Shown one piece after another: positions 5,422 to 34,516 of a DNA stretch of 64,000 bases. Source of the stretch: an uncultured Candidatus Bathyarchaeia archaeon. Lineage in GTDB: Archaea; Thermoproteota; Bathyarchaeia; Bathyarchaeales; SOJC01. The stretch covers positions 11,209 to 75,208 of the forward strand of contig CAYFWV010000028.1 in NCBI GenBank assembly GCA_964346975.1. The letters run 5' to 3'. Positions within the stretch are counted from its first letter, which is position 1; every line of letters begins with the position of its first letter. The notes under the pieces are model-generated. The model had not been told where the DNA came from. It saw only the letters and a program-made list of their open reading frames with translations, and searched no databases. Both the position numbers and the translations under genes were made by a program.

Positions 5422-7053
5422 ATGGTTTCAACCTCAATGTTTGACCTTAGGAATTTTCCGAAAACTGCGGATAAGATTAGGGAGCAGGCGATTGAAGAAG
5501 ACAGGTTAATCAACAACCCTTCGATTGAGCAGCTCAGATTGCTTGTGGAGAGAGAGGTTGGCGTCAGGAAAACCGTGTTTGAGAGTTTCGTTGCTGAAAG
5601 CGAGCCTACTTCACGAGCCGCCATGTTCACCAAGAACAGTGTAGATTACGCTTTTGGAGAAGAGGAGGCAGAACTTCTACGCCAATGTGAGGAAGTCTTA
5701 GGCGCGGAAACTCTGATATCAATTGATCGAATCGTCGGCAACTACAGGAGCGAAACGAGTGTGAGGTTACTTGTGCCTTCACGTTTCGCCCACATCGCAT
5801 ATGGTGGCGGAAACCTCTTCTTACCCGTCAGAAAGGAAGTCGAACAACCAACGTATCAAGTTGTGTTCTTTGCTGACAGTGCGTTTGAATCCAATCGGTC
5901 AAAGAGTCTACCCCAGAAGGACATTATGATACGACTAGCCATGTTGGATGATGGACGAGTTGTCAAAGTCGTGCGAAACAGCAACTACGTAGGAGAGTTC
6001 AAGAAGGGAGTCTTTGCAGCGCAAGACTGGGTTGCCAAGAGCAGAAAAGGTGGGATTTTCCTCCATGCAGGCTGCAGAGAAGACTATCTGCAATCTGCCC
6101 ATGGCGACTATCAAAATGTCAGAACACTGCTGCTTGCCCTAAGTGCCAATGGGAAAACGACTCTGACGTGCCAGATCCTGGCCAGAAAGGGAAAAGAGAA
6201 ATCATGGATCGTCCAAGACGACGGAGGAACCTTGATGCCCGACGGATCTTTCCATGGTTTTGAAGCGGGAGGACTATTCGTAAAAACAGAAGACGTGAAT
6301 CCCGGAGAACAGCGAGAAATATTCTATGGACTACTGAAACCCGGAACCTTAATGGAAAATGTCCACGTCTCACCAGAGGCAGACCTTGACTTCTCCATCA
6401 TGGAGCGAACATCTAACGGACGAGCAGTCATACAGAGAAGAGATCTGATGCACGCCAGCTCCAACATCAACGTAGACAAGATTGACAATGTGATCCTGAT
6501 AACTCGAGGACCATTGATCCCTGCAATAGCCAGATTGACACGTGAACAAGCGGTGGCTTTGATGATTCTCGGACAAGCCACTGAATCCTCTGCTGGAGAC
6601 CCGACCCACGCCGGCGAACTTGCCAGCGAATTCTTCTATGATCCTTTTACCGCAGGTGATCAAGCGGAGCACGCCAACAGATTCTACCAAATCCTGAAGG
6701 GCCTCACTCACATCAACTACTTTCTTCTCAACACTGGAGGCGTCGGCGAAGGATCACGCTACAGAGAAATCTCTGTGAACCACACCGTTGCAATACTAGA
6801 TTCCTTGCTCAGAGGAGGCTTGGAAGACTGGATCGACTCACCCACAGGATTCAAAGTACCCAAAGCCATTCGAATGATTGATGACATCTATCTTCATCCT
6901 GAGAGATTATATTCTACGGAAGAATTCGAGAAATGGCAAAGGAAGCTCAACCGATTCAGACGCTACGCCATAGAGAAAATTGGGGATGCTCTGAATCCCA
7001 GTATAAAGAACGTTTTCAGTGGAGACCCAGGACCAGGCAGCGTAGAAAGCTAG
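5422..7053 (+). CDS. pckA: phosphoenolpyruvate carboxykinase (ATP)
   Basis: 543 aa. Segments YVGEFKKGVFA, LSANGKTTLT (kinase-1a-like), ILITRGPLIPAIARLTREQA and LLNTGGVGEG are colinear with PckA motifs. GGAGG lies upstream of the ATG. Confidence 0.75.
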   Translation: MVSTSMFDLRNFPKTADKIREQAIEEDRLINNPSIEQLRLLVEREVGVRKTVFESFVAESEPTSRAAMFTKNSVDYAFGEEEAELLRQCEEVLGAETLISIDRIVGNYRSETSVRLLVPSRFAHIAYGGGNLFLPVRKEVEQPTYQVVFFADSAFESNRSKSLPQKDIMIRLAMLDDGRVVKVVRNSNYVGEFKKGVFAAQDWVAKSRKGGIFLHAGCREDYLQSAHGDYQNVRTLLLALSANGKTTLTCQILARKGKEKSWIVQDDGGTLMPDGSFHGFEAGGLFVKTEDVNPGEQREIFYGLLKPGTLMENVHVSPEADLDFSIMERTSNGRAVIQRRDLMHASSNINVDKIDNVILITRGPLIPAIARLTREQAVALMILGQATESSAGDPTHAGELASEFFYDPFTAGDQAEHANRFYQILKGLTHINYFLLNTGGVGEGSRYREISVNHTVAILDSLLRGGLEDWIDSPTGFKVPKAIRMIDDIYLHPERLYSTEEFEKWQRKLNRFRRYAIEKIGDALNPSIKNVFSGDPGPGSVES

Positions 7054-7222: not shown

Positions 7223-10200
7223 TTGGTTATTGCAGCCAGTTCCATGGATCTGCGCTTGCTCTCAGTTTCAGCTCAACCTGTCTGGCCTCAGTCGTGGATA
7301 CAAATTGATTGGGACCGAAACGAGAATGGTGAAACTGATGATTGGCGGGACGTTGAAACCGCTCACTATCAATATGACGACGAGTACCTATACTTGAAGC
7401 TTGCATGCTATGGGTCGCCCGGCAGCGATTGGCCTACTCGAGATGCCAGGTACAAATGGTTCATTGATGATAGCGGCTACATGTATTATAGCGGTGGAAA
7501 CGTCTTCGACGCAGAACATCTGCTCTTTGTCGAAGACACAGATCATGACGGTGCCGGCGAAATGTACTTGCTCCATGACATTGACAATGACGATGATTTT
7601 GGGGACTATGAACCCTGGCCCACTGCAGGTTATGCGAGCTATGAAATCACAGACTCGAATGTGGGCGGCTGGAGAATCGTTGCTCCTAATCAGATCGAAA
7701 TGTACTTGGATTGGGCTTCACTCGGAAATCCTCCGGCTTATCAACTATTCTGGTCAACTGACCAACAGAATCCCAATCTCGATCAATCTCCCACAGCGGA
7801 TCGTATGGACGAGGAAGAACCACTACTAATCCACAACGTCGCGGCTACCGGTCAGGTCTCTACACCTTCAACCGTTAGGCAGGGAGAAAACGTGACGATT
7901 CAGATCTCAGTAGAGAACATGGGAACCCAAACAGAAACTTTCAATGTCACGAGCTACTTCAATAGCACAGTTCTCGCTACAAAACTCGTGACAAATCTGG
8001 CAGCAGGACAAAGCACAGTACTCACGTATTATTGGAACACGACAGGCATCCCTGTTGGAGTCTATTCAATAACAGGGTGGGCAGACTCAAGCGCAGCTAT
8101 AACTGAAACCAATGAAGACGATAACTGGTGCACTCAACAAGCTTCTGTGGATATTCAGCCTGCTCCAAAACATGACGTCGCTGCTACCTCTCAAGTTCCA
8201 GCGATGACAAGTGTGGTGCAAGGAACAGTGGTTGACATAAACGTCAGCGTTTCTAATTTGGGAGATTTCGATGAAACCTTCAACGTCACATGTTTCTATG
8301 GTCACAATGTGATAGGAGGGGAAACTGTAGTCGACTTGCCAGCTCAAACAGTTGCCAGCTTGGTTTTCTCGTGGGACACGACAGGTGTTCCATCAAACAC
8401 ATATTACATCCTGGCAATGGCTGATAGTAGCCGAATCATCCCTGAAACTGATGAAGCTAACAATAACTGCACAAGCCTCGAAACTGTGACGGTGTATTCA
8501 CCCGGAGAGGCTGGAAAACTCTTCGTAGATAAAGTCATCAGTGCTGTGGTAAGTGGACACGATCCTCCTGTGGTAGGATTTTCAACAACTTACGAGATGA
8601 CCATAATCGTGAGCAACACTGGAGGGAGCAGCGTCTTCAACATCATAGTCAATGAGACGATTTCAGATGTCTCCTATATTAGTGTAGGCACTCCAAGCCA
8701 GGGCACAATCCTCGCGGTGCCCCCTCCCAGAATAGAGTGGGATGTGGGAATGCTCCCTGTTGGCGGAAGCGCAACACTAACTTTCAGAATAGAAGCCAGT
8801 CCAGACTCCATGACTCCCCTGTATCTCAATCATAAGGAAGATCTCGTTGCTTCAGGAGTCGACTACCTGACCGGTAGCCCCGTGTCAGATACAGCCGACG
8901 AAGACATTATCGTAACCCCCATAATCCGCGACGTGGCTGCGACCAGCCAGATTCCAACGAGCACCCAAGTGCCACAGGGCGATACCATCACAGTACAGGT
9001 CACTGTTGAAAATCTCGGGAACACATCTGAGAGCTTCGATGTGACCTGCTCCTATGATGCCACGATCATCGGCGTCTTGAGAATCTTCAATCTGGGAGCA
9101 GGAAATCAAATCACCGTACCGTTCGCATGGGACACCACAGATGTCCAACCTGGAACCTATTCGATAACTGCAGAAGCTGACTCAAGCAATGAACTTGCTG
9201 AGACCGACGAAACAAACAACATTTGCACTTCACCAACGACTGTGCGGATTCTGATTAACGACATCTCCATAATCAGTCAAGCTCCATCACCCACCACTGT
9301 GACAGAGGGCGAAAACATCACTGTGCAAGCCGTTGTCAAGAATGAAGGAACAGAGCCTGCCTCATTCAATGTGAGTTGCTACAGCAACGAAACCCTGATC
9401 GACAAGCAGTCGGTTGTCAACCTCCAACCGAACATGACAATCACCGTAGAATTCATATGGAATACCACAGGGGTTCCGCATGGAATCTATTTCTTCAACA
9501 CGGTTGCCTCCGTTCTGCAAGATGAGAAAGAGACAGAAGACAATGCCTGCAGAAGCACGACAAGTGCAACCGTGCTTGCAGGGCAACATCAAGTCACGTT
9601 TGACCAGATAGGTGTCTCTTCAGACTTCACGGGTACAGTGGTTACAATTGATGGGGCCGACTACACGGTTGGCAGCTTGCCAATTGGATTCCTGTGGGAT
9701 TCAGGGTCAACTCATAGCTTCACCTTTGAATCACCTCTGATAGTGACTCCAGACGCAAAGCAGTATGCGTGGACAAGTACCACGGGACTGTCCACGTCAC
9801 AGAGTGATTCATTGATAGTGGCTAGCGCAGGCAACGTCACCGGCGTATTCCAGAGCCAATTCTACCTGACCGTCTCCTCTCCATACAGCACAACAGGTGG
9901 GGAAGGCTGGTATGATAGTGATAGCGTAGCATACGCCAGCGTTGACACCGCCCCAGTGGATCATGGAAATGGGACTCGCAGAGTATTCGAGGTCTGGAGT
10001 GACGATGGCTCTGGAACAGAGTATGACCAAAGTAACGGGATTCTAATGGATGAACCAAGAACTGCAACAGCAACCTGGAAGACCCAGTACTTTCTATTAT
10101 TGACGAAGACACTCGGCGGCTTCATCAACCCATCAATATCCGAATGGTGGGATGTCGGAAGTACAGTCACAGTCACAGCCACACCCCAAGTGAACTACTT

Positions 10201-10441
10201 GTTTGACCACTGGGAACTCGACGCCACAAATGTTGGCACCATCAACCCCTACCAAGTGCCTATGACTACAGCTCACACGTTGCATGCCGTGTTCAAACCG
10301 ATAATCACTGGAGGCTCATCAGTTCCGATTGCTGGGTCCAGCCTTGCATGGATCAGTCTCAACATCACTCTGTTTGCAGCCGTGTCTTGCGTGGCATTCT
10401 GCGCAAAAAGGTTCCGAAGATCTGCAGGGGATAGACCGTAA
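7223..10441 (+). CDS. large surface/adhesin-like protein with 4 CARDB-like modules, one DUF11-like module, an InlB-B-repeat-like module and a C-terminal TM anchor
   Basis: 1072 aa ORF. Repeated HDVAATSQ..V.QG..V.I.V.V.N.G...E.FNVT modules. C-terminus LAWISLNITLFAAVSCVAFCAKRFRRS. The true start is probably ATG 7159 in another frame (see findings). Confidence 0.85.
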   Translation: MVIAASSMDLRLLSVSAQPVWPQSWIQIDWDRNENGETDDWRDVETAHYQYDDEYLYLKLACYGSPGSDWPTRDARYKWFIDDSGYMYYSGGNVFDAEHLLFVEDTDHDGAGEMYLLHDIDNDDDFGDYEPWPTAGYASYEITDSNVGGWRIVAPNQIEMYLDWASLGNPPAYQLFWSTDQQNPNLDQSPTADRMDEEEPLLIHNVAATGQVSTPSTVRQGENVTIQISVENMGTQTETFNVTSYFNSTVLATKLVTNLAAGQSTVLTYYWNTTGIPVGVYSITGWADSSAAITETNEDDNWCTQQASVDIQPAPKHDVAATSQVPAMTSVVQGTVVDINVSVSNLGDFDETFNVTCFYGHNVIGGETVVDLPAQTVASLVFSWDTTGVPSNTYYILAMADSSRIIPETDEANNNCTSLETVTVYSPGEAGKLFVDKVISAVVSGHDPPVVGFSTTYEMTIIVSNTGGSSVFNIIVNETISDVSYISVGTPSQGTILAVPPPRIEWDVGMLPVGGSATLTFRIEASPDSMTPLYLNHKEDLVASGVDYLTGSPVSDTADEDIIVTPIIRDVAATSQIPTSTQVPQGDTITVQVTVENLGNTSESFDVTCSYDATIIGVLRIFNLGAGNQITVPFAWDTTDVQPGTYSITAEADSSNELAETDETNNICTSPTTVRILINDISIISQAPSPTTVTEGENITVQAVVKNEGTEPASFNVSCYSNETLIDKQSVVNLQPNMTITVEFIWNTTGVPHGIYFFNTVASVLQDEKETEDNACRSTTSATVLAGQHQVTFDQIGVSSDFTGTVVTIDGADYTVGSLPIGFLWDSGSTHSFTFESPLIVTPDAKQYAWTSTTGLSTSQSDSLIVASAGNVTGVFQSQFYLTVSSPYSTTGGEGWYDSDSVAYASVDTAPVDHGNGTRRVFEVWSDDGSGTEYDQSNGILMDEPRTATATWKTQYFLLLTKTLGGFINPSISEWWDVGSTVTVTATPQVNYLFDHWELDATNVGTINPYQVPMTTAHTLHAVFKPIITGGSSVPIAGSSLAWISLNITLFAAVSCVAFCAKRFRRSAGDRP
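7829..9585 (+). repeat. tandem coding repeats (CARDB-like modules of about 110 aa at ~7829, ~8168, ~8921 and ~9254, with a DUF11-like module between)
   Basis: Recurrent (H/R)DVAAT(S/G)Q..P..V.QG..(V/I)...V.V.N.G...E.F(N/D)VT....N...I in the translation. Confidence 0.6.
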
Positions 10442-14161: not shown

Positions 14162-14402
14162 ATAACATTCTGAGGCGGGCTACGAAATTGGAGACCAAAG
14201 GGTTCACCTACAAGCGATAGCACGAAAAAAAGTGTCTTATCCTGAAGTGGGCCGGGAGAGATTTGAACCAGGACAAATGGAGATTTCACCTGACCTTGCT
14301 TCCTGCACCCTCCCCTTTGTTCTCTCTTGTTTCCCTATGAGAATGGAAACTGGTTCTACAAACCATAATAGGCGGGTATGCCAATTAAGACAAAGAGGGG
14401 AA

Positions 14403-17400
14403 ATGATGAAGCACATTAGTTCAGTCTTGCTTAGATTACTTTTGCCGGTTATTCTCGTACTTACACAACTACTGTTCCCATTGATTTTCATAGCACAGGT
14501 TAGCGCAGACGATCCGTTCACGTTTTCATCTTGGGCGTCAACAACACCTCTAATTGATGGACAACTCAGCCCAGCGAATCCTTGGACCGCAGCCCCAGCG
14601 GAATGGGATGATGCGGACAGGATTGAGTTCTCTCTATCATGGGGTGCTGAAGTTCACAATGCCTCTCTCTACGTTAAGAACGATTACATCAACCTCTATC
14701 TAGCGTTTGTAATTGAGAATGAAGACTACGACTCTGATGATAGGGTAGTGTTTAACTTCGACAACGATGGCGACGGAGTGAAAATGATTGGAGACGACCA
14801 ACTCTGGGTTGATACGACGATTTCTTTTGTTTCGTGGGACCACCGCGCAGGTTATTTTGAAGATGGATTCTTCCCGACTCCTGCTGACGTGGCTTCATTT
14901 GAAAGGGATGTTTTAGATCTTGGTGACCTGGACGGTGTGGGCGCAGTCCAGTTCTCCGGGGCGAGTCCTAGTGAACCAGGTAATTATGTCGTCGAAATAG
15001 CTCATCCACTCGATACACTTGACAGCAGTCACGACTTCAGCCTTGGTGAGGGTCTTGGGCATGGAGCTTCAGTAAGCATGAATGTTGTGTACCTGGAAAA
15101 CGGTAATCCCCTTTCAGGTGATGGGTGGCCTACACTCACATGGGGCGACTGGTCTCAAATGGCTTCTATTACCCTTGCGGATCCTCCTAATCGAGGTCCA
15201 CTAGGCTTCGGAAGAAATCTGAAAATTGATGGAATTGAGATTACTCAAGCTGTACAATACTGGGATGACTTTGGACATGGAGATAACAGTTTATCTCTTG
15301 CTCGTGGAAAAAGCACTATTGTGAGAGTCTTCGTTGATCCAGGTATCTATGGAACAAGAATACATGATGTGACAGCCTACTTGTACGCAACTTCAGCTGC
15401 TGGTGACAGTCTGGCGCATCCTGGAATCTGGACCCCCAACGGACCCCTGTTCGCAGCAGCTAGGATTCAAGCTCCGCTTCCACCAAACTTCTTCACGAGA
15501 GCAAGAGAGGAATACACGATTAACTTCCTGCTTCCAGACTATTGGGTCACCCGTGGAAGCCTGAATCTTGTGGCCTTTGTGAAAGCCACCGATGGAATGA
15601 CTGAAACTCTCTACTCAGACAACTGGATGAGCTGGGTGCCAATCTCATTCACTCCAACAGAATCCTTGAGAATAGGATATTATCTGATTGACTATCGACC
15701 TGACGCTGTAGGTCCAGGTCAGAACATCCCATCAGCTGCCAAGGAAGTGATAGCCCATACGTTCTTTGAGAAGGTCACTCCTATGCCTGATCTGTCAGAT
15801 CCAGTGCAGTTCCTGCTTGCCGGAGCTCCCATTGTATGGGACGGTCCAGATTTCACAAATCCATTTGACGCAGGGAATCAACGTGAACTACTTGAAGACC
15901 TTGAGGAAATGAGGCGTGCGTTGGAAAGGGCGGGCGTATCATACGATCTGATCTGTGGGTTGTATGGCGGAGCAACCCAAGGCACACGCATCGGACAAGT
16001 TCCTAGTATCCCCAGCAGAGTCTTTGTTGCTCATGAGGATCGACCGTGGAGCTTCGCTCACGAGATCGGCCACAATTACGGGCTTTACCATAGTTGGGAT
16101 GAACGAAGCGGTAATCCATATCTGGGCCATCCAGATAGAGAGAACTCGAGCCAAACATTCGGCTATGATACACAACAAAACTGGTTTATCAACGTGGGTT
16201 ATCCTTCAGAACCTGGGGATGTTGCGAAGTCTCCACTGCATCTTTTTGAAGGCCAATATGGCAACCTGATGAGTTATGAGAATCAATACCGATGGATTGA
16301 CCCTTATGAATGGGAAGAACTTATGGAAGTTTTTGATCCTCCAGTTGCAGCGCTGCAAACCTTACCTTCTAGCAATATCCAGAGTTCCTCTCCTGGCCTT
16401 CAAGTTTCGGGCAGAATCTACAAGAATAACACAGGCAGTTTGCGTCCAGTTTTCCAAATACCCTCCATCCTGAACATCAGCGTCCCCAGTGGTCCATATA
16501 CTGTTGAGCTCAGAGGGGCTCCTCCTGGAGAGGAGGTGTTGTACAGCCAAAGCTTTGATGTCCAATTTGATACCGATGCTTGGGAAGGTGTTCCATTCTC
16601 CGACACGGCTTTCTTCATGCTAGATCTACCATTTATGACTGGTACATACAGCGTATCCCTCTGGAACACCAGCATATCCCCCGCCGTGTTACTCGACAAG
16701 ATCACAGCTAGTGCCAACGCCCCTCAAGCAACGATAACCTATCCAAACGGTGGAGAAAACGTTGGAGACTCGTTCAATGCTACTTGGACCGCTTTTGACC
16801 CTGATGGTGATCCCTTAACCTTCAAACTGTCTTATAGTAGTGATAATGGTGCGACGTGGAGACCATTATCTCCGCGTATATATGGGACAGGTTACCTTGT
16901 GGACGGTTCAGCGCTTCCAGGCAGTTCAGAAACTTTGATTCGAGTTGAGGTCTCAGATGGGATCTACATGAGTGAGGATCAATCTGATGCAGTCTTCGAC
17001 GTGCCTTTCAAAGGGCCGCGATCCGCGATTGGTATCGGAGTAGGACCCAGTAACACGTACAATTTTGGTGAGCCAATTATCTTCAAGGGGTCAGCCTTTG
17101 ACCTTGAGGATGGTGCGCTTTCGAATTCATCTCTCACCTGGACCTCGGACATTGATGGTTTCTTAGGAACGGGCAGAGTATTCACCACAACTGATTTGAC
17201 GCCAGGGATACATAGTATTACGTTGACAGCTCTGATAGTGATAATAACAATTCCTCGTATTCATTTGATGTAACTGTGGAGATTCATGATGTTGCTGTGA
17301 TTGATGTTTCTCCAGCGAAAACGATAGTTGGTGAAGGGCATGATCTCTCTTTCAATATGACACTTGAGAATCAAGGGCTCTCATCGGAGATTTTCAACGT

Positions 17401-18127
17401 CACCCTATCACTCTACGAGATTAATGCTACCTCTGTCAACGTAGAACTATATGGGCTGGCAACAGCTGGGTGGGGAGCCAACCCGAACAATATTACAAGC
17501 CCAGGACCAACCATAATGGTCAATCAGTGGGATCACATCAAGCTGACCTTACACAGCGCAGATTCGCTCACACACAACTTCTTCGTTGACTATAATGGAG
17601 ATCAAACTCCTACAGCTGGTGAACCTACATCTCCTGATTTCACGTCAATCATTGAATACGACTTTGTAGCGGACACTGTTGGCACATTTTTGTACTATTG
17701 CCATTTCCATGGCTCGGTAATGTTTGGCACCCTCATAGTGCAGGAACCATCCATACTATCATACTATCAGGAAAGCATCCCTAATGAGGAGCATTTGGAT
17801 GCTGGAGAGAGGCGTTCAAGTGTCCGTCCCCACACTTGTCTCGGAAAAGGCTACTATATCTTCGCTGCTGCTGCAGGTCCTGTCCCTAATGAAATCGAGA
17901 CAGTAGACAATACCTTCATTGTTGGACAGATAATCTTCATCACCATCCCAGGTGATGTTGATGGAGACCGCGATGTAGACATTTTTGACATCGTAGCTAT
18001 GGCCACAATCTATGGTGTTGTCGAACCTGATCCATCCTATGATCCCAACTGTGACATCGATGGCGACGGTGACGTGGACATCTTCGACATCGTGGCCGCA
18101 GCTAGCCACTATGGGGAAAGCTGGTAG
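14403..18127 (+). pseudogene. secreted metzincin-type Zn metalloprotease with Asp-box/PKD-like, CARDB-like, cupredoxin and dockerin modules; reading frame broken at ~17229-17234 (or an indel error)
   Basis: Track ORFs 14232..17273 and 17276..18127. Signal peptide MMKHISSVLLRLLLPVILVL..AQVSA from ATG 14403. HEIGHNYGLYH at 16059-16091. YSSDNGATW Asp-box. H..YYCHFHGSVM type-1 Cu ligand pattern. Two DxDGDxDVDIFDIV dockerin segments. The PKD-like strand ..GIHSITLTA|DSDNNNSSYSFDVTVEIHDVAV continues across the frame change. Confidence 0.8.
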
Positions 18128-18178
18128 CGCGTGCGTGATGGTTCAGGAGCTGGAAGTGTGGAAGGGGGGCATCTGCAG

Positions 18179-18889
18179 ATGTTCAAGGTGCTTGTCCTCT
18201 TCGTGATTGTAGCGACAGCAGTTCTGCATGAACCCGGAGCATGTTCTCCCCTCGAATGTGTCATTCCCGTCGTCTATCGATCTCAGGAAACTGGCTACTA
18301 TTGTGGTCCTGCAGCTGTTCAGATGGCCCTTGGTCATGTTGTAGTTGCTGCGCCAAGCCAGGACATGTTGGCATCGGAAATGGAAACAGATCCAGTGGAA
18401 GGCGCCACATATACCGATATGATGCGTGTACCCTTTGAGACGCGGAATCTCCCGGATGTCTACGAGGGAACCTTGGAACTGGAGGATTTGCAGGAGGCAA
18501 CAGATCATGGTTTCCTGACCATCATCCTCATCTATTTTAGCACTGCACTGATGTATCAACACTATGTGCTTGTCATCGGCTACAATGCCAGCGGAATCTA
18601 CGTACATGATCCATGGCCCCTAAATGCGAGTCAACCTGCAGGCCGATCCACGGGAGCCAACGCGTTCATCTCGACTGATCTGCTAGCCGATCTGTGGGCC
18701 TGTGATCCTGCCCACTGGGGACTTGTCATACCGTATTCAACCACGCCTGGAGAAGGACCATCATGGTGGCAGCAGTACTGGTTTCTCCTGATCGCCGTTC
18801 CTGTTTCCATAGCAGCGGTTGCCACAATAATCCTGGTGAAAAGGAAGACATCCACAACTGAGAACTCGAATATATCCAAGGCAATCTAG
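18179..18889 (+). CDS. C39-like (papain-fold) cysteine peptidase with a C-terminal TM anchor
   Basis: SQETGYYCGPAAVQMAL (Cys), HYVLVIGY (His), VHDPW (Asp). ATG 18179 after GGAAGGGGGG. C-terminus WFLLIAVPVSIAAVATIILVKRK. Confidence 0.7.
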   Translation: MFKVLVLFVIVATAVLHEPGACSPLECVIPVVYRSQETGYYCGPAAVQMALGHVVVAAPSQDMLASEMETDPVEGATYTDMMRVPFETRNLPDVYEGTLELEDLQEATDHGFLTIILIYFSTALMYQHYVLVIGYNASGIYVHDPWPLNASQPAGRSTGANAFISTDLLADLWACDPAHWGLVIPYSTTPGEGPSWWQQYWFLLIAVPVSIAAVATIILVKRKTSTTENSNISKAI

Positions 18890-20681: not shown

Positions 20682-21371
20682 ATGGCAGAAGGAACTAGTG
20701 CCTTAGCATATCCCGAATTTGTGTGGGAGTCAAATATGCAACACTTTCGTGACGATCCATACCATGCAACGATTGAAGTTGTCAATGATCAGTGTAAAGG
20801 CCTTGGAATAATCAAAAGCTTAGGAATACAGCAATGCAAGCTGTTGGACGTTCGAAGTTTGCCTGATGGTCTCACGCGACATCTTATCAGCTTTCCATCC
20901 TCCGAAACCTACACAATACCCCAAGAACGAAGGCATGAGGTGATGATTCGTCGAAAGCAAGGTAAGGAAACCTTGCTTTGGTTTGACACTGATGGCTGTG
21001 GTGTGTGCCAGACTCTTTTGAGAACCAACTCTTTCTTGGTGTCTGGAAGAAAATTTGAGGGCAACACACTAGTGTATTCATTTGTAGCTCCCACTCTGGA
21101 GGCATTTCAAAAAGCTCTCGTTCAACTTGAAGAGAATGGGCTCAATCCTAAGATCATCGAAGCTGGCACCTATCGATCCAAGACTAAAGTGCTGACCGAG
21201 AAGCAGGAAAAAGCCTTGTGGCTGGGTTTGAAGATGGGATTCTTTGACTATCCGCGAAAGGTAAACACGTCTGAACTCTCACAGAGACTTGGAATCAAGC
21301 CGTCAACGTTGTCGGAGATACTCCGAAGGGGCATGCGAAGACTGCTTGAGTACCATTACAAGGGTGAGTAG
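20682..21371 (+). CDS. HTH_10 (Bat-type) DNA-binding transcriptional regulator
   Basis: C-terminal LTEKQEKALWLGLKMGFFDYPRKVNTSELSQRLGIKPSTLSEILRRGMRRLL is the classic archaeal HTH_10 module. Confidence 0.75.
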   Translation: MAEGTSALAYPEFVWESNMQHFRDDPYHATIEVVNDQCKGLGIIKSLGIQQCKLLDVRSLPDGLTRHLISFPSSETYTIPQERRHEVMIRRKQGKETLLWFDTDGCGVCQTLLRTNSFLVSGRKFEGNTLVYSFVAPTLEAFQKALVQLEENGLNPKIIEAGTYRSKTKVLTEKQEKALWLGLKMGFFDYPRKVNTSELSQRLGIKPSTLSEILRRGMRRLLEYHYKGE

Positions 21372-21557: not shown

Positions 21558-22361
21558 ATGAATGTAAAACACCTAGCTATAATGACTCTGTCATTCCTGA
21601 TGATTTCCAGCGTTTCACTACTTGCAACCGTTAACGCCGACTCATGGCCGACTCTACCAACAACACCAGTTCAACTCACCGTCGTTGACGGAACAACATC
21701 CTACTTCATATCTACACTCAGTGGCGTACCTGGAGGATTCGACGTCCACAATGGAGCGTACCCTGGCTGGTGCATCGACCGCTCAACCACGATGATTCGC
21801 GGCGTCTCGCACAATGTGACCCTGTACTCCAGTCTAACCCCACCGTCCGCCGTCAGCAGCATCAACTGGGTAGCCATCAACTACATCCTGAACCACAAGC
21901 AAGGCAGCATGATGGACGTGCAAGAAGCCATCTGGCACTTCACCGATGCATTTTCCCCCATCAGTGCCACTGCACAAGCTATGGTCGACGCAGCCAATGC
22001 GAATACAACTTATGATCCTATGACGGGAGCAGTACTGGCCATCATCGCCCTCTCACAAGGCGCCCCTGGTGTACAAGACTCGATCATCGAACTCAGCATT
22101 CCTGGAATGGGCCTTTCACCTGGCTACTGGAAACACAACGTCAAGGTCTACAACGGCGGTCGTGGCAGCTACAGCGGAGACCCCCACATCACACCAACTC
22201 AACTAGAGGCCTACGCAACGTATATCGCAGCGAATTATCACCCTGGATTCACTCTCTCGTGGGCAAATGAACGATTTCAGAATAACGCCTACAAGGACAT
22301 GTGGCTGACCATAGCCAACTGGTTCAACGCGGCTGCAGGTCTGCTACCCTACGAAGACTAG
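21558..22361 (+). CDS. secreted protein with a thioester-domain-like Cys / Q-x-A-I-W signature (paralogue 1)
   Basis: ATG 21558 after GAGGAAAG. Signal peptide MNVKHLAIMTLSFLMISSVSLLATVNA. GWCIDR ... NYILNHKQGSMMDVQEAIWHFTD. Confidence 0.75.
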   Translation: MNVKHLAIMTLSFLMISSVSLLATVNADSWPTLPTTPVQLTVVDGTTSYFISTLSGVPGGFDVHNGAYPGWCIDRSTTMIRGVSHNVTLYSSLTPPSAVSSINWVAINYILNHKQGSMMDVQEAIWHFTDAFSPISATAQAMVDAANANTTYDPMTGAVLAIIALSQGAPGVQDSIIELSIPGMGLSPGYWKHNVKVYNGGRGSYSGDPHITPTQLEAYATYIAANYHPGFTLSWANERFQNNAYKDMWLTIANWFNAAAGLLPYED

Positions 22362-22384
22362 ACAGAACGCTAACGCAATCCAAA

Positions 22385-22403
22385 CCCCCCTCCCCTTTTT
22401 ATC
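22385..22403 (+). terminator. candidate intrinsic terminator (C-rich tract plus T5)
   Basis: CCCCCCTCCCCTTTTTATC 24 nt after the stop at 22361. Confidence 0.4.
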
Positions 22404-22809
22404 TCAACACGCGGCAGATTCCACCCTGGACAACTGGGATAGTTGATGACCTCCCCGACACTACCGGAAGTTTAATCTGACGACAATCGACTACCAACGA
22501 ACTCTCATGAGTACACTGCATTCGTATTATTCCTCACTCACCGGACGCGCGATAATACGAGCTGCTCCTGCCTCAACCGAGGATAGTTATCTTGGCTCGG
22601 CGAATCCCTGGAACGACACCGGACTGGCTAAACGCAACACACCGGCAGTCAGAAGTCAATTCACGGAAGATCGTGGTTAACGCATAATGTCGAGGATGTG
22701 CATGCACTCACGTGCCTATTGAGTATTCTTCTAGAAATATTCTCCAGAAGCCTTAAAGCGAGTGGTCGACGTGAGCAAGTTGGTTTAAGTCAAGAAAGGA
22801 GAAAAAAAG

Positions 22810-23619
22810 ATGAAGCTAAAGAATCTGTCGATTTTCCTTGCCACACTTGTGGTGTTATCAGGATCATTCATGACGCAAGCAGGAGCCGCACCATTTCCAA
22901 CTTTGCCATCCACCCCAGTCTACATGACGGTGGTCAACGGTAGCATCAGCTATTTCACCATCACACTAAGCGACGTTCCTGCGGGCTATGATGTATCAAA
23001 CGACACCTATGTTGGCTGGTGCCTAGATCGTGGTCACAACATGACCCGAGATGTCGCTCTGGCCGTAACATTGTACTCGAGTTTGAGTCCACCTGACTCC
23101 TTGAATACAAAACCTTGGAACCAGACCAACTATATCCTGAACCACAAGCAAGGCAGCATGATGGACGTGCAACAAGCCATTTGGAACCTTATGGGATGGT
23201 GGAACTTCACAAACCTAACCCCGACCGCACAGACCTTGGTCAACGAGGCCAACGCTAACTCCGGCTATGTTCCCGCATACGGCGACATCGTAGGCGTCAT
23301 CTGCTATCCAGCTGACGCGGACGAACAACTCGCACTAATAGAAGTCACACCGATGCTAGAGCCAGGATATACACCTGGGTTCTGGAAGCACAACATCGGT
23401 GTTGCCCTCGGCTACAATCCTGGAGCATACAGTGCTTTCCGTAACGGAGCAAAACTAACCTACACAATGTTGCAGGGCTATGCAGCAACAGTTGGAGTGA
23501 CGCTGGAAGAAGCGTACGCGGCTTTGACTGCACGGCGTATTCCAGGTGCGAATGTGATTCGCGCCGATATGGCTAACGCTTTCAACTCTGCAGCAGGCTA
23601 CGGTCCATTCGAAGACTAA
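22810..23619 (+). CDS. secreted protein with a thioester-domain-like Cys / Q-x-A-I-W signature (paralogue 2)
   Basis: ATG after GGAGAAAAAAAG. Signal peptide MKLKNLSIFLATLVVLSGSFMTQAGA. GWCLDR ... NYILNHKQGSMMDVQQAIWNL. Colinear with 21558..22361. Confidence 0.8.
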   Translation: MKLKNLSIFLATLVVLSGSFMTQAGAAPFPTLPSTPVYMTVVNGSISYFTITLSDVPAGYDVSNDTYVGWCLDRGHNMTRDVALAVTLYSSLSPPDSLNTKPWNQTNYILNHKQGSMMDVQQAIWNLMGWWNFTNLTPTAQTLVNEANANSGYVPAYGDIVGVICYPADADEQLALIEVTPMLEPGYTPGFWKHNIGVALGYNPGAYSAFRNGAKLTYTMLQGYAATVGVTLEEAYAALTARRIPGANVIRADMANAFNSAAGYGPFED

Positions 23620-24532: not shown

Positions 24533-27172
24533 ATGAACACTCTGCATCGATCTAAAGTGCACCCACACCGATCCAAGGTATTCGTTGCTATCTTGATTTT
24601 TTCCCTTATCTCCATTCCATTCTTGGTGCCTTCTATTCAAGCAGCTCCCCTAGTTTGGAGTGTAGAGACTGTGGATGCAGCTAGTGAAGTAGGTGCATTC
24701 TCCTCTCTTGTTTTGGACTCTAATGATTATCCCCACATCAGCTACCGTGATTCAAATTGGACTAATTTAAAGTATGCTAAGTGGACAGGCTCACTCTGGG
24801 TCATGGGGCCTGTTGACGCGGTGGGGAATGTTGGGCAATGGACCTCTCTGGCCTTGGATTCCAGCGATCACCCGCACATCAGCTATTATGACATTGATAA
24901 TCGTGATTTAAAGTATACGACATTCTATGCAACGACTAACTTGTCAGTCCAGATAACAACGTCAGTTGATACGATTGGTGAAGTGGGTGGACACTCGTCT
25001 ATAGCCATAGACTCTCTTGATAGACCCCACATCAGCTACGTTGACTTCACGCATCAGGCTTTAAAGTATGCCTGGTGGAATGGCTCAGCCTGGAACATCG
25101 AGACTGTTGATGATCCACCAAACTACGTTGGTGACACCTCCCTTGCCTTGGATTCCAGCGATCGACCCCGCATCAGCTATAGCGCAGATGAAGTGAAGTA
25201 TGCGCGATGGACGGGAACAACCTGGAACATCGAAATAGTTGAGAACGTGACTAACACACACAATTCCCTGGTTCTGGATTCGGATGATAACCCCCACATC
25301 AGCTACAACGATTGGTCAACCAAAAATCTGAAGTATGCGCGATGGACGGGTTCAGCTTGGTCTATCGAAACAGTTGACGCTGCCTTGACTGTAGGAGAAT
25401 TCTGCTCCCTTGCGCTGGATTCTAATGATTACCCCCACATCAGCTACTATGACGCATATTGGCAAGATCTGAAGTATGCAGGATGGAACGGAACAAGCTG
25501 GTTCATCAAGAATATAGATCATCTCGGAGACGTTGGTAACTGGGGAACATCAATCGCGATTGATTCCCATGATAACCCCCACATCAGCTATCACGACTAT
25601 ACCAACCGTAATCTAAAGTATGCTCAGGATCCAGATGAATACTTCTACGATGTTGGCTACGCAGCTTTTGACAGCAATGGTGATGGGTTCCATGATGGTG
25701 TGGAGGTATGGATGGATGTGGACACCACTTACTTGGGCCCCCTCAATATTTCGGTTCAGGGTTTTCTCACCGATGAAGTGGGTATGGTGCAGAGTTCCAA
25801 TAGATCAAGTTGGGAAATCACTGGGATCTCCTTTGAGCATGGTTATGTTCATCTTTATCTCCCTGCGGGGGCGCCTGAAGGATGGTATGACATTGGACTT
25901 GCCCTGTATGATGAGCGATTCGCAATCGAAGGAGGTCGATTATTTCATGACGCTGCCTACCTATATCCACCCAATATGCAGGCATTAACGATTCAGGTGA
26001 GTGGCGCTGGATCAACTAGTCCGTCTCCTGGTACGTGGTGGGCTACCCAAGATACCGAACTAGAGGTGCTTGCCATTCCTGATTCCGGTTGGATATTGGA
26101 TCATTGGGTTCTCGATTCAGGAGATGCAGGAACTGATAATCCGATTAGCATTACGTTGGATTCAGATCATGTATTGACAGCGGTATTTGTTGAGGAGTCC
26201 CAAATTGGGTTTCTGCAGGGCAGAGTCACCGATCTTGACTCCCATCTGCCAATCGTGGGGGCCGAGGTTGCAGTGGGGGATCTTTATTTCAGCACCACCA
26301 ACGGTTCAGGTCATTACTCGATGGAACTTCCCACTGGAAGTTATAATGTCACAGTTACTGAAGAAGTGTATAATAGCGGAACAGCCCTGGTTTCGGTGAT
26401 CGCTGGAATCACCACCGTTCAAGACTTCCACCTTCAACGTAGCCATTGGATCCTAATCATGGAAGTTGAGGGATCGGGCACTACCGATCCACCTCCAGGA
26501 GGAATGACCTTCTTAATTGGGGCAGAGATCCCGATTCAAGCATTCCCTGCCCACGGGTGGTTTCTAGATCATTGGATCGTTGACTCAGTCTTTCACGATG
26601 CTGTTAACCCCTTCTTCATACTCATGGATACCGATCACGTGGTGAGGGCTGTTTTCTATGAAGAGGCTCCAACTCAACCCTTTATTGAGAGCTGCAACTC
26701 CGAGGGAGAACACCAAGATAGCTTTGACCTTGGTCAAACGGTTTACGTGACCGGAGCAGGATACCCACACTCCTCATCTTTTGACTGCTACGTAGTAGTT
26801 GACGTGGAATCTTGGATTGACGGAATGGTTATCCCCGGGCGTGTTTCTGGAACTGAACCTATAGTTACCTCGAACCCTGATGGGGAGATCCTGGTGACAG
26901 TTGTGTGGTCAGACACCCATACGATGGGGGACTTTGATGTAGTGATTGATGTGAATGGAAACGGGCACTATGAAGTTGGAGTCGACGCGTTAGATAATGA
27001 TGACATTGAGGTTACGAATGGGTTCATCGTGATTCCTGAACTATCTGTGTACTCATTGCTTCTGCTATTTCTTTTAACAACTCTTTTGGCATATGGAGTT
27101 CGCACTGCTAACTTCGGTTTACGTTCAAGAACCAAGCGCGCGCGCATCTGGAGAATCAAAGACACCCCATAA
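24533..27172 (+). CDS. surface protein with a 7-bladed beta-propeller-like repeat region, two InlB-B-repeat-like modules, a CarboxypepD_reg-like module and a P-E-x C-terminal sorting signal
   Basis: 879 aa. Signal peptide ..VFVAILIFSLISIPFLVPSIQA. Seven ..LD(S)xDxPHISYxDxxxxxLKYAxW.. repeats. GRVTDLDSHLPIVGAEVAV. C-terminus IPELSVYSLLLLFLLTTLLAYGVR plus a basic tail. Confidence 0.85.
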   Translation: MNTLHRSKVHPHRSKVFVAILIFSLISIPFLVPSIQAAPLVWSVETVDAASEVGAFSSLVLDSNDYPHISYRDSNWTNLKYAKWTGSLWVMGPVDAVGNVGQWTSLALDSSDHPHISYYDIDNRDLKYTTFYATTNLSVQITTSVDTIGEVGGHSSIAIDSLDRPHISYVDFTHQALKYAWWNGSAWNIETVDDPPNYVGDTSLALDSSDRPRISYSADEVKYARWTGTTWNIEIVENVTNTHNSLVLDSDDNPHISYNDWSTKNLKYARWTGSAWSIETVDAALTVGEFCSLALDSNDYPHISYYDAYWQDLKYAGWNGTSWFIKNIDHLGDVGNWGTSIAIDSHDNPHISYHDYTNRNLKYAQDPDEYFYDVGYAAFDSNGDGFHDGVEVWMDVDTTYLGPLNISVQGFLTDEVGMVQSSNRSSWEITGISFEHGYVHLYLPAGAPEGWYDIGLALYDERFAIEGGRLFHDAAYLYPPNMQALTIQVSGAGSTSPSPGTWWATQDTELEVLAIPDSGWILDHWVLDSGDAGTDNPISITLDSDHVLTAVFVEESQIGFLQGRVTDLDSHLPIVGAEVAVGDLYFSTTNGSGHYSMELPTGSYNVTVTEEVYNSGTALVSVIAGITTVQDFHLQRSHWILIMEVEGSGTTDPPPGGMTFLIGAEIPIQAFPAHGWFLDHWIVDSVFHDAVNPFFILMDTDHVVRAVFYEEAPTQPFIESCNSEGEHQDSFDLGQTVYVTGAGYPHSSSFDCYVVVDVESWIDGMVIPGRVSGTEPIVTSNPDGEILVTVVWSDTHTMGDFDVVIDVNGNGHYEVGVDALDNDDIEVTNGFIVIPELSVYSLLLLFLLTTLLAYGVRTANFGLRSRTKRARIWRIKDTP
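24686..25630 (+). repeat. seven tandem coding repeats of about 143 nt (propeller blades)
   Basis: CC(C/G)CACATCAGCTA recurs at about 24732, 24875, 25027, 25170, 25294, 25434 and 25577. Confidence 0.7.
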
Positions 27173-31217: not shown

Positions 31218-31340
31218 TCACACGCTTCAAAAAGTGACGACCTGAGAATTTAAGCATTGCCAGCAGACACTAGTGACAATGCTAGGTTCGGTGTGAATCT
31301 CGGTTTCCGAGCTTCCCCAAGGTTTAAACTTTGCACACCC

Positions 31341-31348
31341 ATAAAAAT
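31341..31348 (+). promoter_or_regulatory. TATA-box-like element; near-leaderless start of the NrdD-like gene
   Basis: ATAAAAAT ends 23 nt before ATG 31371. Confidence 0.4.
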
Positions 31349-31370
31349 AGCCACTGAAAGGCGACTACTC

Positions 31371-34516
<3,146 letters not shown>

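Follow-up and report, generated by a model that had tools for sequence, protein, structure and literature searches.

Two tandem genes on the forward strand of a 64,000-nucleotide stretch of DNA from an uncultured Candidatus Bathyarchaeia archaeon (assembly GCA_964346975.1, contig CAYFWV010000028.1; this whole stretch is referred to below as the window) encode proteins, P1 and P2, whose N-terminal domain is, on the evidence of structure prediction, very probably a homologue of the thioester domain (TED) fold of bacterial surface adhesins. The residues predicted to form the bond, separated by 101-102 positions, are Cys72 and Gln173 in P1 and Cys71 and Gln173 in P2. TEDs have been described and validated just in Gram-positive surface proteins, which use them for covalent binding to host proteins, and were reported to occur "exclusively in Gram-positive bacteria" (Walden 2015). 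Our search of the searchable literature revealed no report of an archaeal TED, which agrees with an earlier note on this DNA, made from the sequence alone, that knew of no characterized archaeal case. The same note had proposed a TED-like domain in the two proteins. Its view of the relationship finds support in both sequence and predicted structure, but its choice of the bonding Gln does not stand (see below).

Predicted structure of the N-terminal domain

P1 and P2 are, as the earlier note had recognized, the products of tandem open reading frames (ORFs) and carry predicted Sec-type signal peptides; an identity of 42% across their full length (E 3e-64) identifies them as paralogues. The AlphaFold2 model of P1 (48-sequence alignment) has a mean predicted local distance difference test (pLDDT) score of 89.6. 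In this model three core helices (residues 104-112, 118-130 and 137-148) lie between a first block of strands (38-44, 50-55, 66-72 and 84-91) and a second one (159-166 and 175-180). The predicted layout of strands, three helices and strands agrees with the description of TEDs as three core helices placed between beta-sheet regions (Walden 2015); the TED fold combines a beta-barrel subdomain with a subdomain of three helices.

Comparison of this model with the PDB by Foldseek, a check that had been suggested along with the original proposal, returned bacterial TEDs as all of the top 12 matches (probability 0.90-1.00, E 6e-5 to 3e-2), among them CpTIE (5A0G, 5A0D), SfbI (5A0L), PnTIE (5A0N) and Cpa (2XID, 2XIC). 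In the remaining list a probability above 0.25 was reached only by further TED entries. As judged from the model, the relationship of the P1 N-domain to TEDs is distant but specific.

The best structural matches of P1 belong to Class I TEDs (CpTIE-TED 5A0G, SfbI-TED 5A0L, PnTIE-TED 5A0N and Cpa/Spy0125 2XID; PF08341). Common to them and P1 are the succession of strands, three core helices and further strands, a strand-end Cys in an aromatic-C-Φ-acidic/polar context, a Q-x-x-Φ-W motif on the second helix ~50 residues past this Cys, and, towards the end of the domain, a ΦQζΦΦ-like strand with an invariant Gln. Moreover, both archaeal proteins are, like Class I TED proteins, secreted, with the domain placed right after the signal peptide. 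On the other hand, the archaeal domain is smaller (~155 aa versus ~175-215 aa), its Cys-Gln spacing is shorter (101 residues versus 129-153; Walden 2015), and it deviates from the TED motifs by having Trp for Y/F/L before the Cys and Val/Ile for Thr before the helix Gln. By predicted secondary structure it appears to lack both the N-terminal helix insert of Class I and the beta-sandwich of Class II. The partner modules also differ, a novel four-helix domain or a dockerin in the archaeal short forms taking the place of the isopeptide/ester stalks of TED proteins. The archaeal proteins, unlike Class I TED proteins, have no LPXTG or sortase anchor. An LPXTG context is not expected in archaea.

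Class II slipknot TEDs (BaTIE 6FWV, SaTIE 6FX6 and TIE-pLS20; PF20610) have the Cys and alpha2 motifs in common with P1. Their beta-sandwich insertion or slipknot would not be possible in a 155-aa domain, and SaTIE is a weak Foldseek match to the P1 model (rank 18, probability 0.23). In the Pfam scan neither P1 nor P2 matched PF20610 (TED_2).

Sequence evidence for and against a TED relationship

At the sequence level, the Pfam TED profile (PF08341) matches P1 with 21.0 bits and an E-value of 4.5e-4, the alignment running from residue 71 to 153 of the protein and from position 3 to 94 of the 102-position profile. Weak TED matches were found by the Pfam scan in 26 of the 48 close homologues, the best at E 6.1e-5; TED is the only family that comes up repeatedly among them. 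As a calibration we considered TIE-pLS20, the TED adhesin of plasmid pLS20, whose function is abolished by mutation of the Cys. This validated TED obtains a comparable 23.6 bits on the same profile, only 1.6 bits above the threshold, and its Y56-C57 occupies the profile positions (3-4) that are taken by W71-C72 of P1. A phmmer search with TIE-pLS20 found no TED in the PDB. Weak sequence scores are therefore normal among TEDs.

A number of results nevertheless weigh against the TED assignment. The TM (template modelling) scores of the P1 model, normalised to the target, are modest (0.40-0.50 for isolated TED entries, with a root-mean-square deviation of ~6 Å). The profile searches proposed in the earlier note gave a divided answer: the 21.0 bits of P1 fall just under the Pfam gathering score of 22, P2 has no Pfam TED match, and NCBIfam, including its TQXA model, yielded nothing for either protein at E <= 1. 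Among the wider relatives, the Pfam TED profile is matched by only 3 of 136 (E < 0.01). No TED was retrieved from PDB sequences either by phmmer with P1 and P2 or by hmmsearch with full-length, N- and C-domain profiles. Finally, an hhalign comparison of the archaeal profile with a Class II TED profile built from three sequences (TIE-pLS20 and the 2 relatives that a word-indexed search had provided) gave a probability of 0.3%; as TIE-pLS20 itself retrieves no PDB TED by phmmer and the profile made from it finds SaTIE at E 0.06 only, we treat this value as uninformative rather than contrary. Judging from the above scans, the current Pfam and NCBIfam models fail to capture the archaeal family.

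Those PDB entries that did come up in the sequence searches (an aldehyde dehydrogenase, a Sel1 repeat protein, a coronavirus spike heptad repeat and the p75NTR death domain, E 0.33) were rejected as spurious.

Identity of the putative thioester residues

In TEDs the thioester Cys is found in a [YFL]CΦζ motif, and the bonding Gln in a weak ΦQζΦΦ beta-strand motif C-terminal to the helices, as in the known pairs Cys109-Gln261, Cys94-Gln247 and Cys138-Gln267. A third motif, TQXXΦW (formerly TQxA(I/V)W), is located on helix alpha2, where its Gln and Trp form hydrogen bonds with the Cys backbone; it is dispensable, and universal conservation is limited to the two residues of the bond, Cys and Gln (Walden 2015; Miller 2018). 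The archaeal family likewise displays three motifs: W-C72-[V/I/L]-[D/E/N/Q] at the end of strand 66-72, [V/I]-Q122-x-A-I-W126 on the second core helix (118-130), and [V/A/I]-Q173-x-[S/T]-[I/F]-I-E178 at the start of the last strand (175-180).

The conservation of these residues was assessed in 48 close homologues and in a more diverged set of 154 domains, taken from representatives clustered at 50% identity. Cys72 is present in 48/48 and 151/152 sequences of the two sets, respectively, Gln173 in 48/48 and 142/143, and Gln122 in 47/48 and 143/153. The invariance of W71, C72, A124, I125 and W126 throughout the 48 homologues, together with the presence of Cys72 in 151 of 152 domains, argues that the motifs are not due to chance. 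Cys72 and Gln173 occur together in 275 of 293 domain instances. The sole domain of the 293 that has no Cys (P0198, residues 31-185) shows replacements of Cys by Arg, of Gln173 by Pro and of Trp126 by Leu with Gln122 being kept, and looks like a degenerate, non-reactive copy. An apparent Gln173 to Val change in another protein (P0050) reflects a one-residue alignment shift. The near-invariance of both residues, their joint loss in P0198 and the roles assigned to the respective motifs in the TED literature lead us to predict Cys72 and Gln173 as the bonding pair.

Covariation was analysed by mean-field direct coupling analysis (DCA) of 264 unique domains, and the resulting contact map is plausible. 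Among 11,781 residue pairs, 73-176 ranks 3rd, which puts residue 73 beside residue 176, whereas 72-173 ranks 29th, 72-126 32nd and 72-122 1,705th. The analysis is underpowered (~209 effective sequences) and its 72-173 signal depends on one sequence, which counts against the proposed pair, so that we take the outcome as supportive only.

The earlier note had named the Gln of Q-x-A-I-W as the thioester partner. The motifs on which it relied, GWC(I/L)DR and NYILNHKQGSMMDVQ(E/Q)AIW, do occur in both proteins with the Gln exactly 50 residues past the Cys, and a Cys72-Gln122 thioester within a TED-like domain would be compatible with the high conservation of Gln122, with the position of the corresponding Gln, which adjoins the thioester Cys in TED structures, and with the DCA rank of the 72-126 pair, which places the helix near the Cys. 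However, the motif corresponds to the non-essential TQXXΦW of helix alpha2, whose Gln in solved TEDs just hydrogen-bonds the Cys backbone and proved by mutagenesis not to be needed (Walden 2015; Miller 2018). In ~15 of the 293 domains Cys72 and Gln173 are retained although R, E, A, S, T or N stands in place of Gln122; the reverse is seen in P0198, and the 72-122 pair itself ranks far down the DCA list. An interval of 50 residues is usual between the Cys and the alpha2 motif of a TED: a similar gap of 54 residues separates A-F-C-I-E from T-Q-M-L-I-W in the crystal-verified SaTIE, where the actual thioester bond is Cys296-Gln467 (Miller 2018). Overall, we consider Gln122 a very improbable partner of Cys72. 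With the bonding Gln located further downstream, two caveats raised in the note lose their object: the distance from Cys to partner is 101 rather than 50 residues, and the replacement of Thr by Val before the Gln affects a motif that is incompletely conserved even in true TEDs.

Another possibility is that the domain retains the TED fold and forms no thioester, acting as a non-covalent binder in which Cys72 is a free thiol (a metal or redox ligand) or a buried structural residue. The homology to true TEDs is indeed remote; the Trp before Cys72 and the Val/Ile before Gln122 depart from the TED consensus, and the domain is ~20-25% smaller than Class I TEDs. Yet the joint near-invariance and joint loss of Cys72 and the distant Gln173 constitute the signature of a linked pair and would be hard to account for in an ordinary buried residue; moreover, the domain offers neither a conserved His nor a second conserved Cys from which a metal site could be built. 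This alternative appears to us rather unlikely. A disulfide would be impossible for Cys72 of P1, since it is the only Cys in the whole protein. A Cys72-Cys164 disulfide considered for the family was also rejected, as P1 has Ala at position 164 and a single Cys in total, and Cys164 is present in just 80 of the 154 wider domains.

One may also think of a secreted Cys-dependent enzyme (a peptidase, transglutaminase or amidase) with Cys72 as the nucleophile, given that the protein is secreted and has one invariant Cys, and given the presence of peptidase genes nearby in the window (for a C39-like peptidase and a metallopeptidase-like protein). No conserved His was found in the domain, as His113 does not reach the 75% conservation threshold across the wider family, and a Cys-His hydrolase was rejected for this reason; the Foldseek matches, with TEDs holding the first 12 places, include no papain-like, transglutaminase or NlpC/P60 structure; and no peptidase family was detected in Pfam scans of the family. 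Such an enzymatic function is highly improbable.

The DCA also ranked the pair Lys114-Glu178 (window positions 21897-21899 and 22089-22091) 10th. Glu178 is nearly invariant, but several variants, including dockerin-bearing ones, have A, G, V or C instead. The two residues may form a salt bridge, or Glu178 may tune the reactivity of the neighbouring Gln173.

Proposed mechanism

Returning to the predicted Cys72-Gln173 pair, P1 and P2 would be exported via the Sec pathway. On folding, the buried thiol of Cys72 would attack the side-chain amide of Gln173 with loss of NH3, forming an internal thioester in an autocatalytic reaction. The thioester would be buried between the strand and helix subdomains, with Gln122 and Trp126 fixing the Cys backbone as in bacterial TEDs. 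A nucleophile of the target, e.g. a Lys amine, could then attack this electrophilic 'harpoon', resulting in covalent attachment, and the C-domain (or a dockerin in sister proteins) would link this warhead with a complex or with the surface of the cell. Computation supports the fold and the residue logic; thioester formation, the target and the role of the C-domain we infer from the chemistry of the family. The absence of a membrane anchor in P1 and P2 is odd for an adhesin and speaks against this scheme. All in all, it seems probable, though by no means assured, that the domain forms and uses a Cys72-Gln173 thioester.

The proposed chemistry resembles that of complement C3/C4 and alpha2-macroglobulin (CGEQ motif) in that covalent capture relies on a thioester formed internally between Cys and Gln. 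These proteins differ by the unrelated alpha/alpha-toroid fold of their thioester domain, by the location of Cys and Gln within a four-residue motif and by activation through proteolysis, and their thioester is considered a convergent solution relative to TEDs (Walden 2015). No match of the complement/alpha2-macroglobulin thioester type was obtained for P1 or P2.

The C-terminal module

Both proteins end in a second domain that contains, as stated in the earlier note, the motifs PG(Y/F)WKHN and P(Y/F)ED-COOH. Modelled alone by AlphaFold, residues 183-267 of P1 are predicted to form a four-helix domain (pLDDT 96, predicted TM-score 0.87), in which a G-x-x-P-G-x-W-K motif and an Asn of the last helix are invariant. 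The note's remark that the C-terminal halves resemble nothing recognizable also held: the domain matched no Pfam or NCBIfam family (for NCBIfam, C-domain relatives were included), and Foldseek revealed no significant neighbour in the PDB (best E 1.4). More distant relatives display the pattern C-TPG(F/Y)WKNH...LLNAAH...NNxGC and are tagged PF27764; one of them is from Blastococcus (Actinomycetota).

The C-domain is an independent module, because stand-alone secreted C-domain proteins exist (~96-133 aa, up to 80% identical). Its function is most likely, as a guess, that of a non-covalent docking or assembly module, since the C-domain alternates with dockerin at the same position. In the sister proteins, which are comparable with dockerin-bearing components of the cellulosome type, the same N-domain is followed by a type I dockerin (PF00404), whereas P1 and P2 have no dockerin and their C-domain has an unrelated four-helix fold. 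Taken together, these architectures suggest that the C-terminal position in the family holds a docking module.

One gene for a stand-alone C-domain protein (positions 6001-6366 of locus L008) is located three genes from an exosortase/archaeosortase (EpsH) gene. Adjoining it is a regulator with a DUF7347 domain, which is also found in the window in an anaerobic ribonucleotide reductase (NrdD; 31257-33473, + strand) as an N-terminal winged-helix-like domain before the ATP-cone.

Two independent, non-significant hints of a death fold were observed for the C-domain, namely the phmmer match of P2 residues 185-252 (23362-23565) to p75NTR (E 0.33) and a Foldseek match to the AIM2 pyrin domain (E 1.4, probability 0.18). 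They probably reflect generic helical-bundle similarity.

Family, domain architectures and distribution

A search of a word-indexed protein collection with P1 yielded 146 homologues at E <= 1e-3, all of them hypothetical proteins, the few named ones being from metagenome-assembled genomes of Bathyarchaeia (formerly MCG). A profile of the N-module matched 1,829 representative clusters at E <= 1e-3 (237 at E <= 1e-30), and the named members of this wider set include Thermoplasmata. Based on these searches, the family is large, unannotated and numerous in environmental archaea.

Three kinds of C-terminal part are found after the N-module (~155 aa): the helical domain (PG(Y/F)WKHN...PY(E/S)D), a type I dockerin, or a ~140-aa domain ending in ...LAGNIQIHKPPK. 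In wider relatives it is combined with PKD, SdrD_B, SpaA, Big_3_5, DUF11, DUF7507, CARDB, cadherin-like, Big_9 and dockerin domains and occasionally with a type IX secretion system (T9SS) sorting tail. Judged by domain content, the architecture of the wider family resembles that of fibrillar surface adhesins. TIE proteins have a stalk of isopeptide/ester domains and an LPXTG anchor, whereas P1 and P2 are devoid of stalk repeats and end in ..PYED and ..PFED with no anchor; the larger relatives do carry Ig-like stalk repeats (SpaA, SdrD_B, PKD, DUF11).

The largest proteins containing the N-module reach 3,310 aa and up to five matched stretches. For example, in P0140 (3310 aa) the domain profile matches five stretches, and the protein contains 12 DUF7507 repeats. 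In several multidomain relatives (P0141, P0183, P0208, P0215, P0225 and P0227) the TED-like domain is found at the extreme C-terminus, unlike in bacterial TIE proteins.

The gene pair and its surroundings

The features of the two genes are given in Table 1. For P1 we favour the start at 21558 over that of a longer ORF from 21477, because homologues align from there and purine-rich sequence directly precedes it (GAGGAAAGAAAAG-ATG). The spacer between the genes begins with a T-run close behind the stop codon of P1 and is purine-rich ahead of the P2 ATG. Signal peptides were assigned by eye: both N-termini have an n-region with Lys, a hydrophobic core and small residues at the predicted cleavage site (VNA|D in P1, AGA|A in P2). 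In the AlphaFold model of P1 this region comprises a helix (residues 3-19) followed by a disordered linker, with low pLDDT for residues 21-27. In P2 the corresponding motifs are Cys71, Q121-Q-A-I-W125, Gln173, PGFWKHN and the ..PFED end, and the protein matches the domain profiles A2 and A4 at 1.6e-68 and 2.1e-26, respectively.

Table 1. Coordinates of the P1/P2 gene pair and of predicted features of P1 in the window
Feature	Position	Strand	Description
Protein 1 (P1)	21558..22361	+	267 aa; signal peptide, TED-like domain, C-terminal four-helix domain
P1 predicted Sec signal peptide	21558..21638	+	residues 1-27, cleavage after V-N-A; read by eye
P1 TED-like domain	21639..22103	+	residues 28-182; five predicted beta-strands flanking three core helices; Foldseek, A2 domain profile
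P1 Cys72 codon	21771..21773	+	predicted thioester Cys; W-C-I-D motif at strand end
P1 Q122-E-A-I-W126	21921..21935	+	putative counterpart of the TED helix-alpha2 TQXXΦW motif, second core helix 118-130
P1 Q173-D-S-I-I-E178	22074..22091	+	predicted thioester Gln; ΦQζΦΦ-type strand motif
P1 C-terminal four-helix domain	22104..22361	+	residues 183-267 (predicted); motifs PGYWKHN and ANWFNAAAG..PYED
Spacer between P1 and P2	22362..22809		448 bp; sequence reading
Protein 2 (P2)	22810..23619	+	269 aa; P1 paralogue, identical architecture

Scans of all six reading frames of the window with hidden Markov models revealed no further copies of the N- or C-module. In another Candidatus Bathyarchaeia assembly, the gene for a 78%-identical orthologue is single-copy, and the tandem pair is therefore best seen as a recent local duplication of a stand-alone gene. 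The orthologous locus has none of the neighbours seen here (the HTH_10 regulator, a nitroreductase and the large surface proteins), and only the more distant proteasome and cytidylyltransferase synteny is common to the two regions. The HTH_10 gene that the earlier note had placed immediately upstream (20682..21371) is real (PF04967, E 2e-17), but it has no conserved link to the pair: its adjacency is incidental, as it is absent from the locus of the orthologue. An operon or regulatory link to HTH_10 or to the nitroreductase was rejected, neither being present at that locus and no neighbour being conserved across the three architectures.

Further upstream, positions 14232-18889 (+ strand) are occupied by a run of probable secreted-protein genes. 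These include a 1013-aa ORF with weak matches to zinc metallopeptidases (M66, Reprolysin_4), a 283-aa ORF (17276-18127) with a sub-threshold type I dockerin match (20.6 bits, where the cut-off is 22.9), and, at 18131-18889, a C39-like cysteine peptidase. This run and the dockerin-fused relatives of the TED-like proteins hint at a cohesin-dockerin surface system in the organism.

Two larger surface proteins are also encoded in the window. The first (24533-27172, + strand; 879 aa) has a signal peptide, approximately eight copies of a ~45-aa repeat (..LDSxDxPHISY.D....LKYA.W.G..W..), CarboxypepD_reg and InlB B-repeat domains, a DUF7253 match and a C-terminal hydrophobic helix, and looks like a propeller-type surface protein. 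The second (7223-10441, + strand; 1072 aa) combines four CARDB domains, DUF11 and an InlB B-repeat with a short alpha2-macroglobulin (MG-type) match, which spans an MG-like Ig domain and no thioester region.

Implications

A TED-folded family in archaea of sediment and peat would extend thioester adhesion chemistry to another domain of life and to host-free settings. It offers a way into the question of how uncultivated Bathyarchaeia become attached to their substrates or partners. With a profile made for the family, clusters of hypothetical proteins numbering well above a thousand could be annotated, and the ~155-aa domain is a possible protein-ligation tool.

A broader proposal, which we put forward tentatively and with somewhat less than even confidence, is that the family represents a large unrecognized clade (~1,800 clusters at 50% identity) of self-activating thioester domains, a minimal third structural class devoid of the inserts that define the other two. 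These domains would enable uncultivated archaea (Bathyarchaeia, Thermoplasmata) and certain bacteria of the environment to attach covalently to targets other than a host, e.g. to partner cells, to polymers from plants or detritus or to organic matter bound to minerals, partly via cohesin-dockerin assemblies or the new four-helix docking module. If this is true, covalent adhesion would not be peculiar to Gram-positive pathogens but a strategy of microbes in general, and an ancient one.

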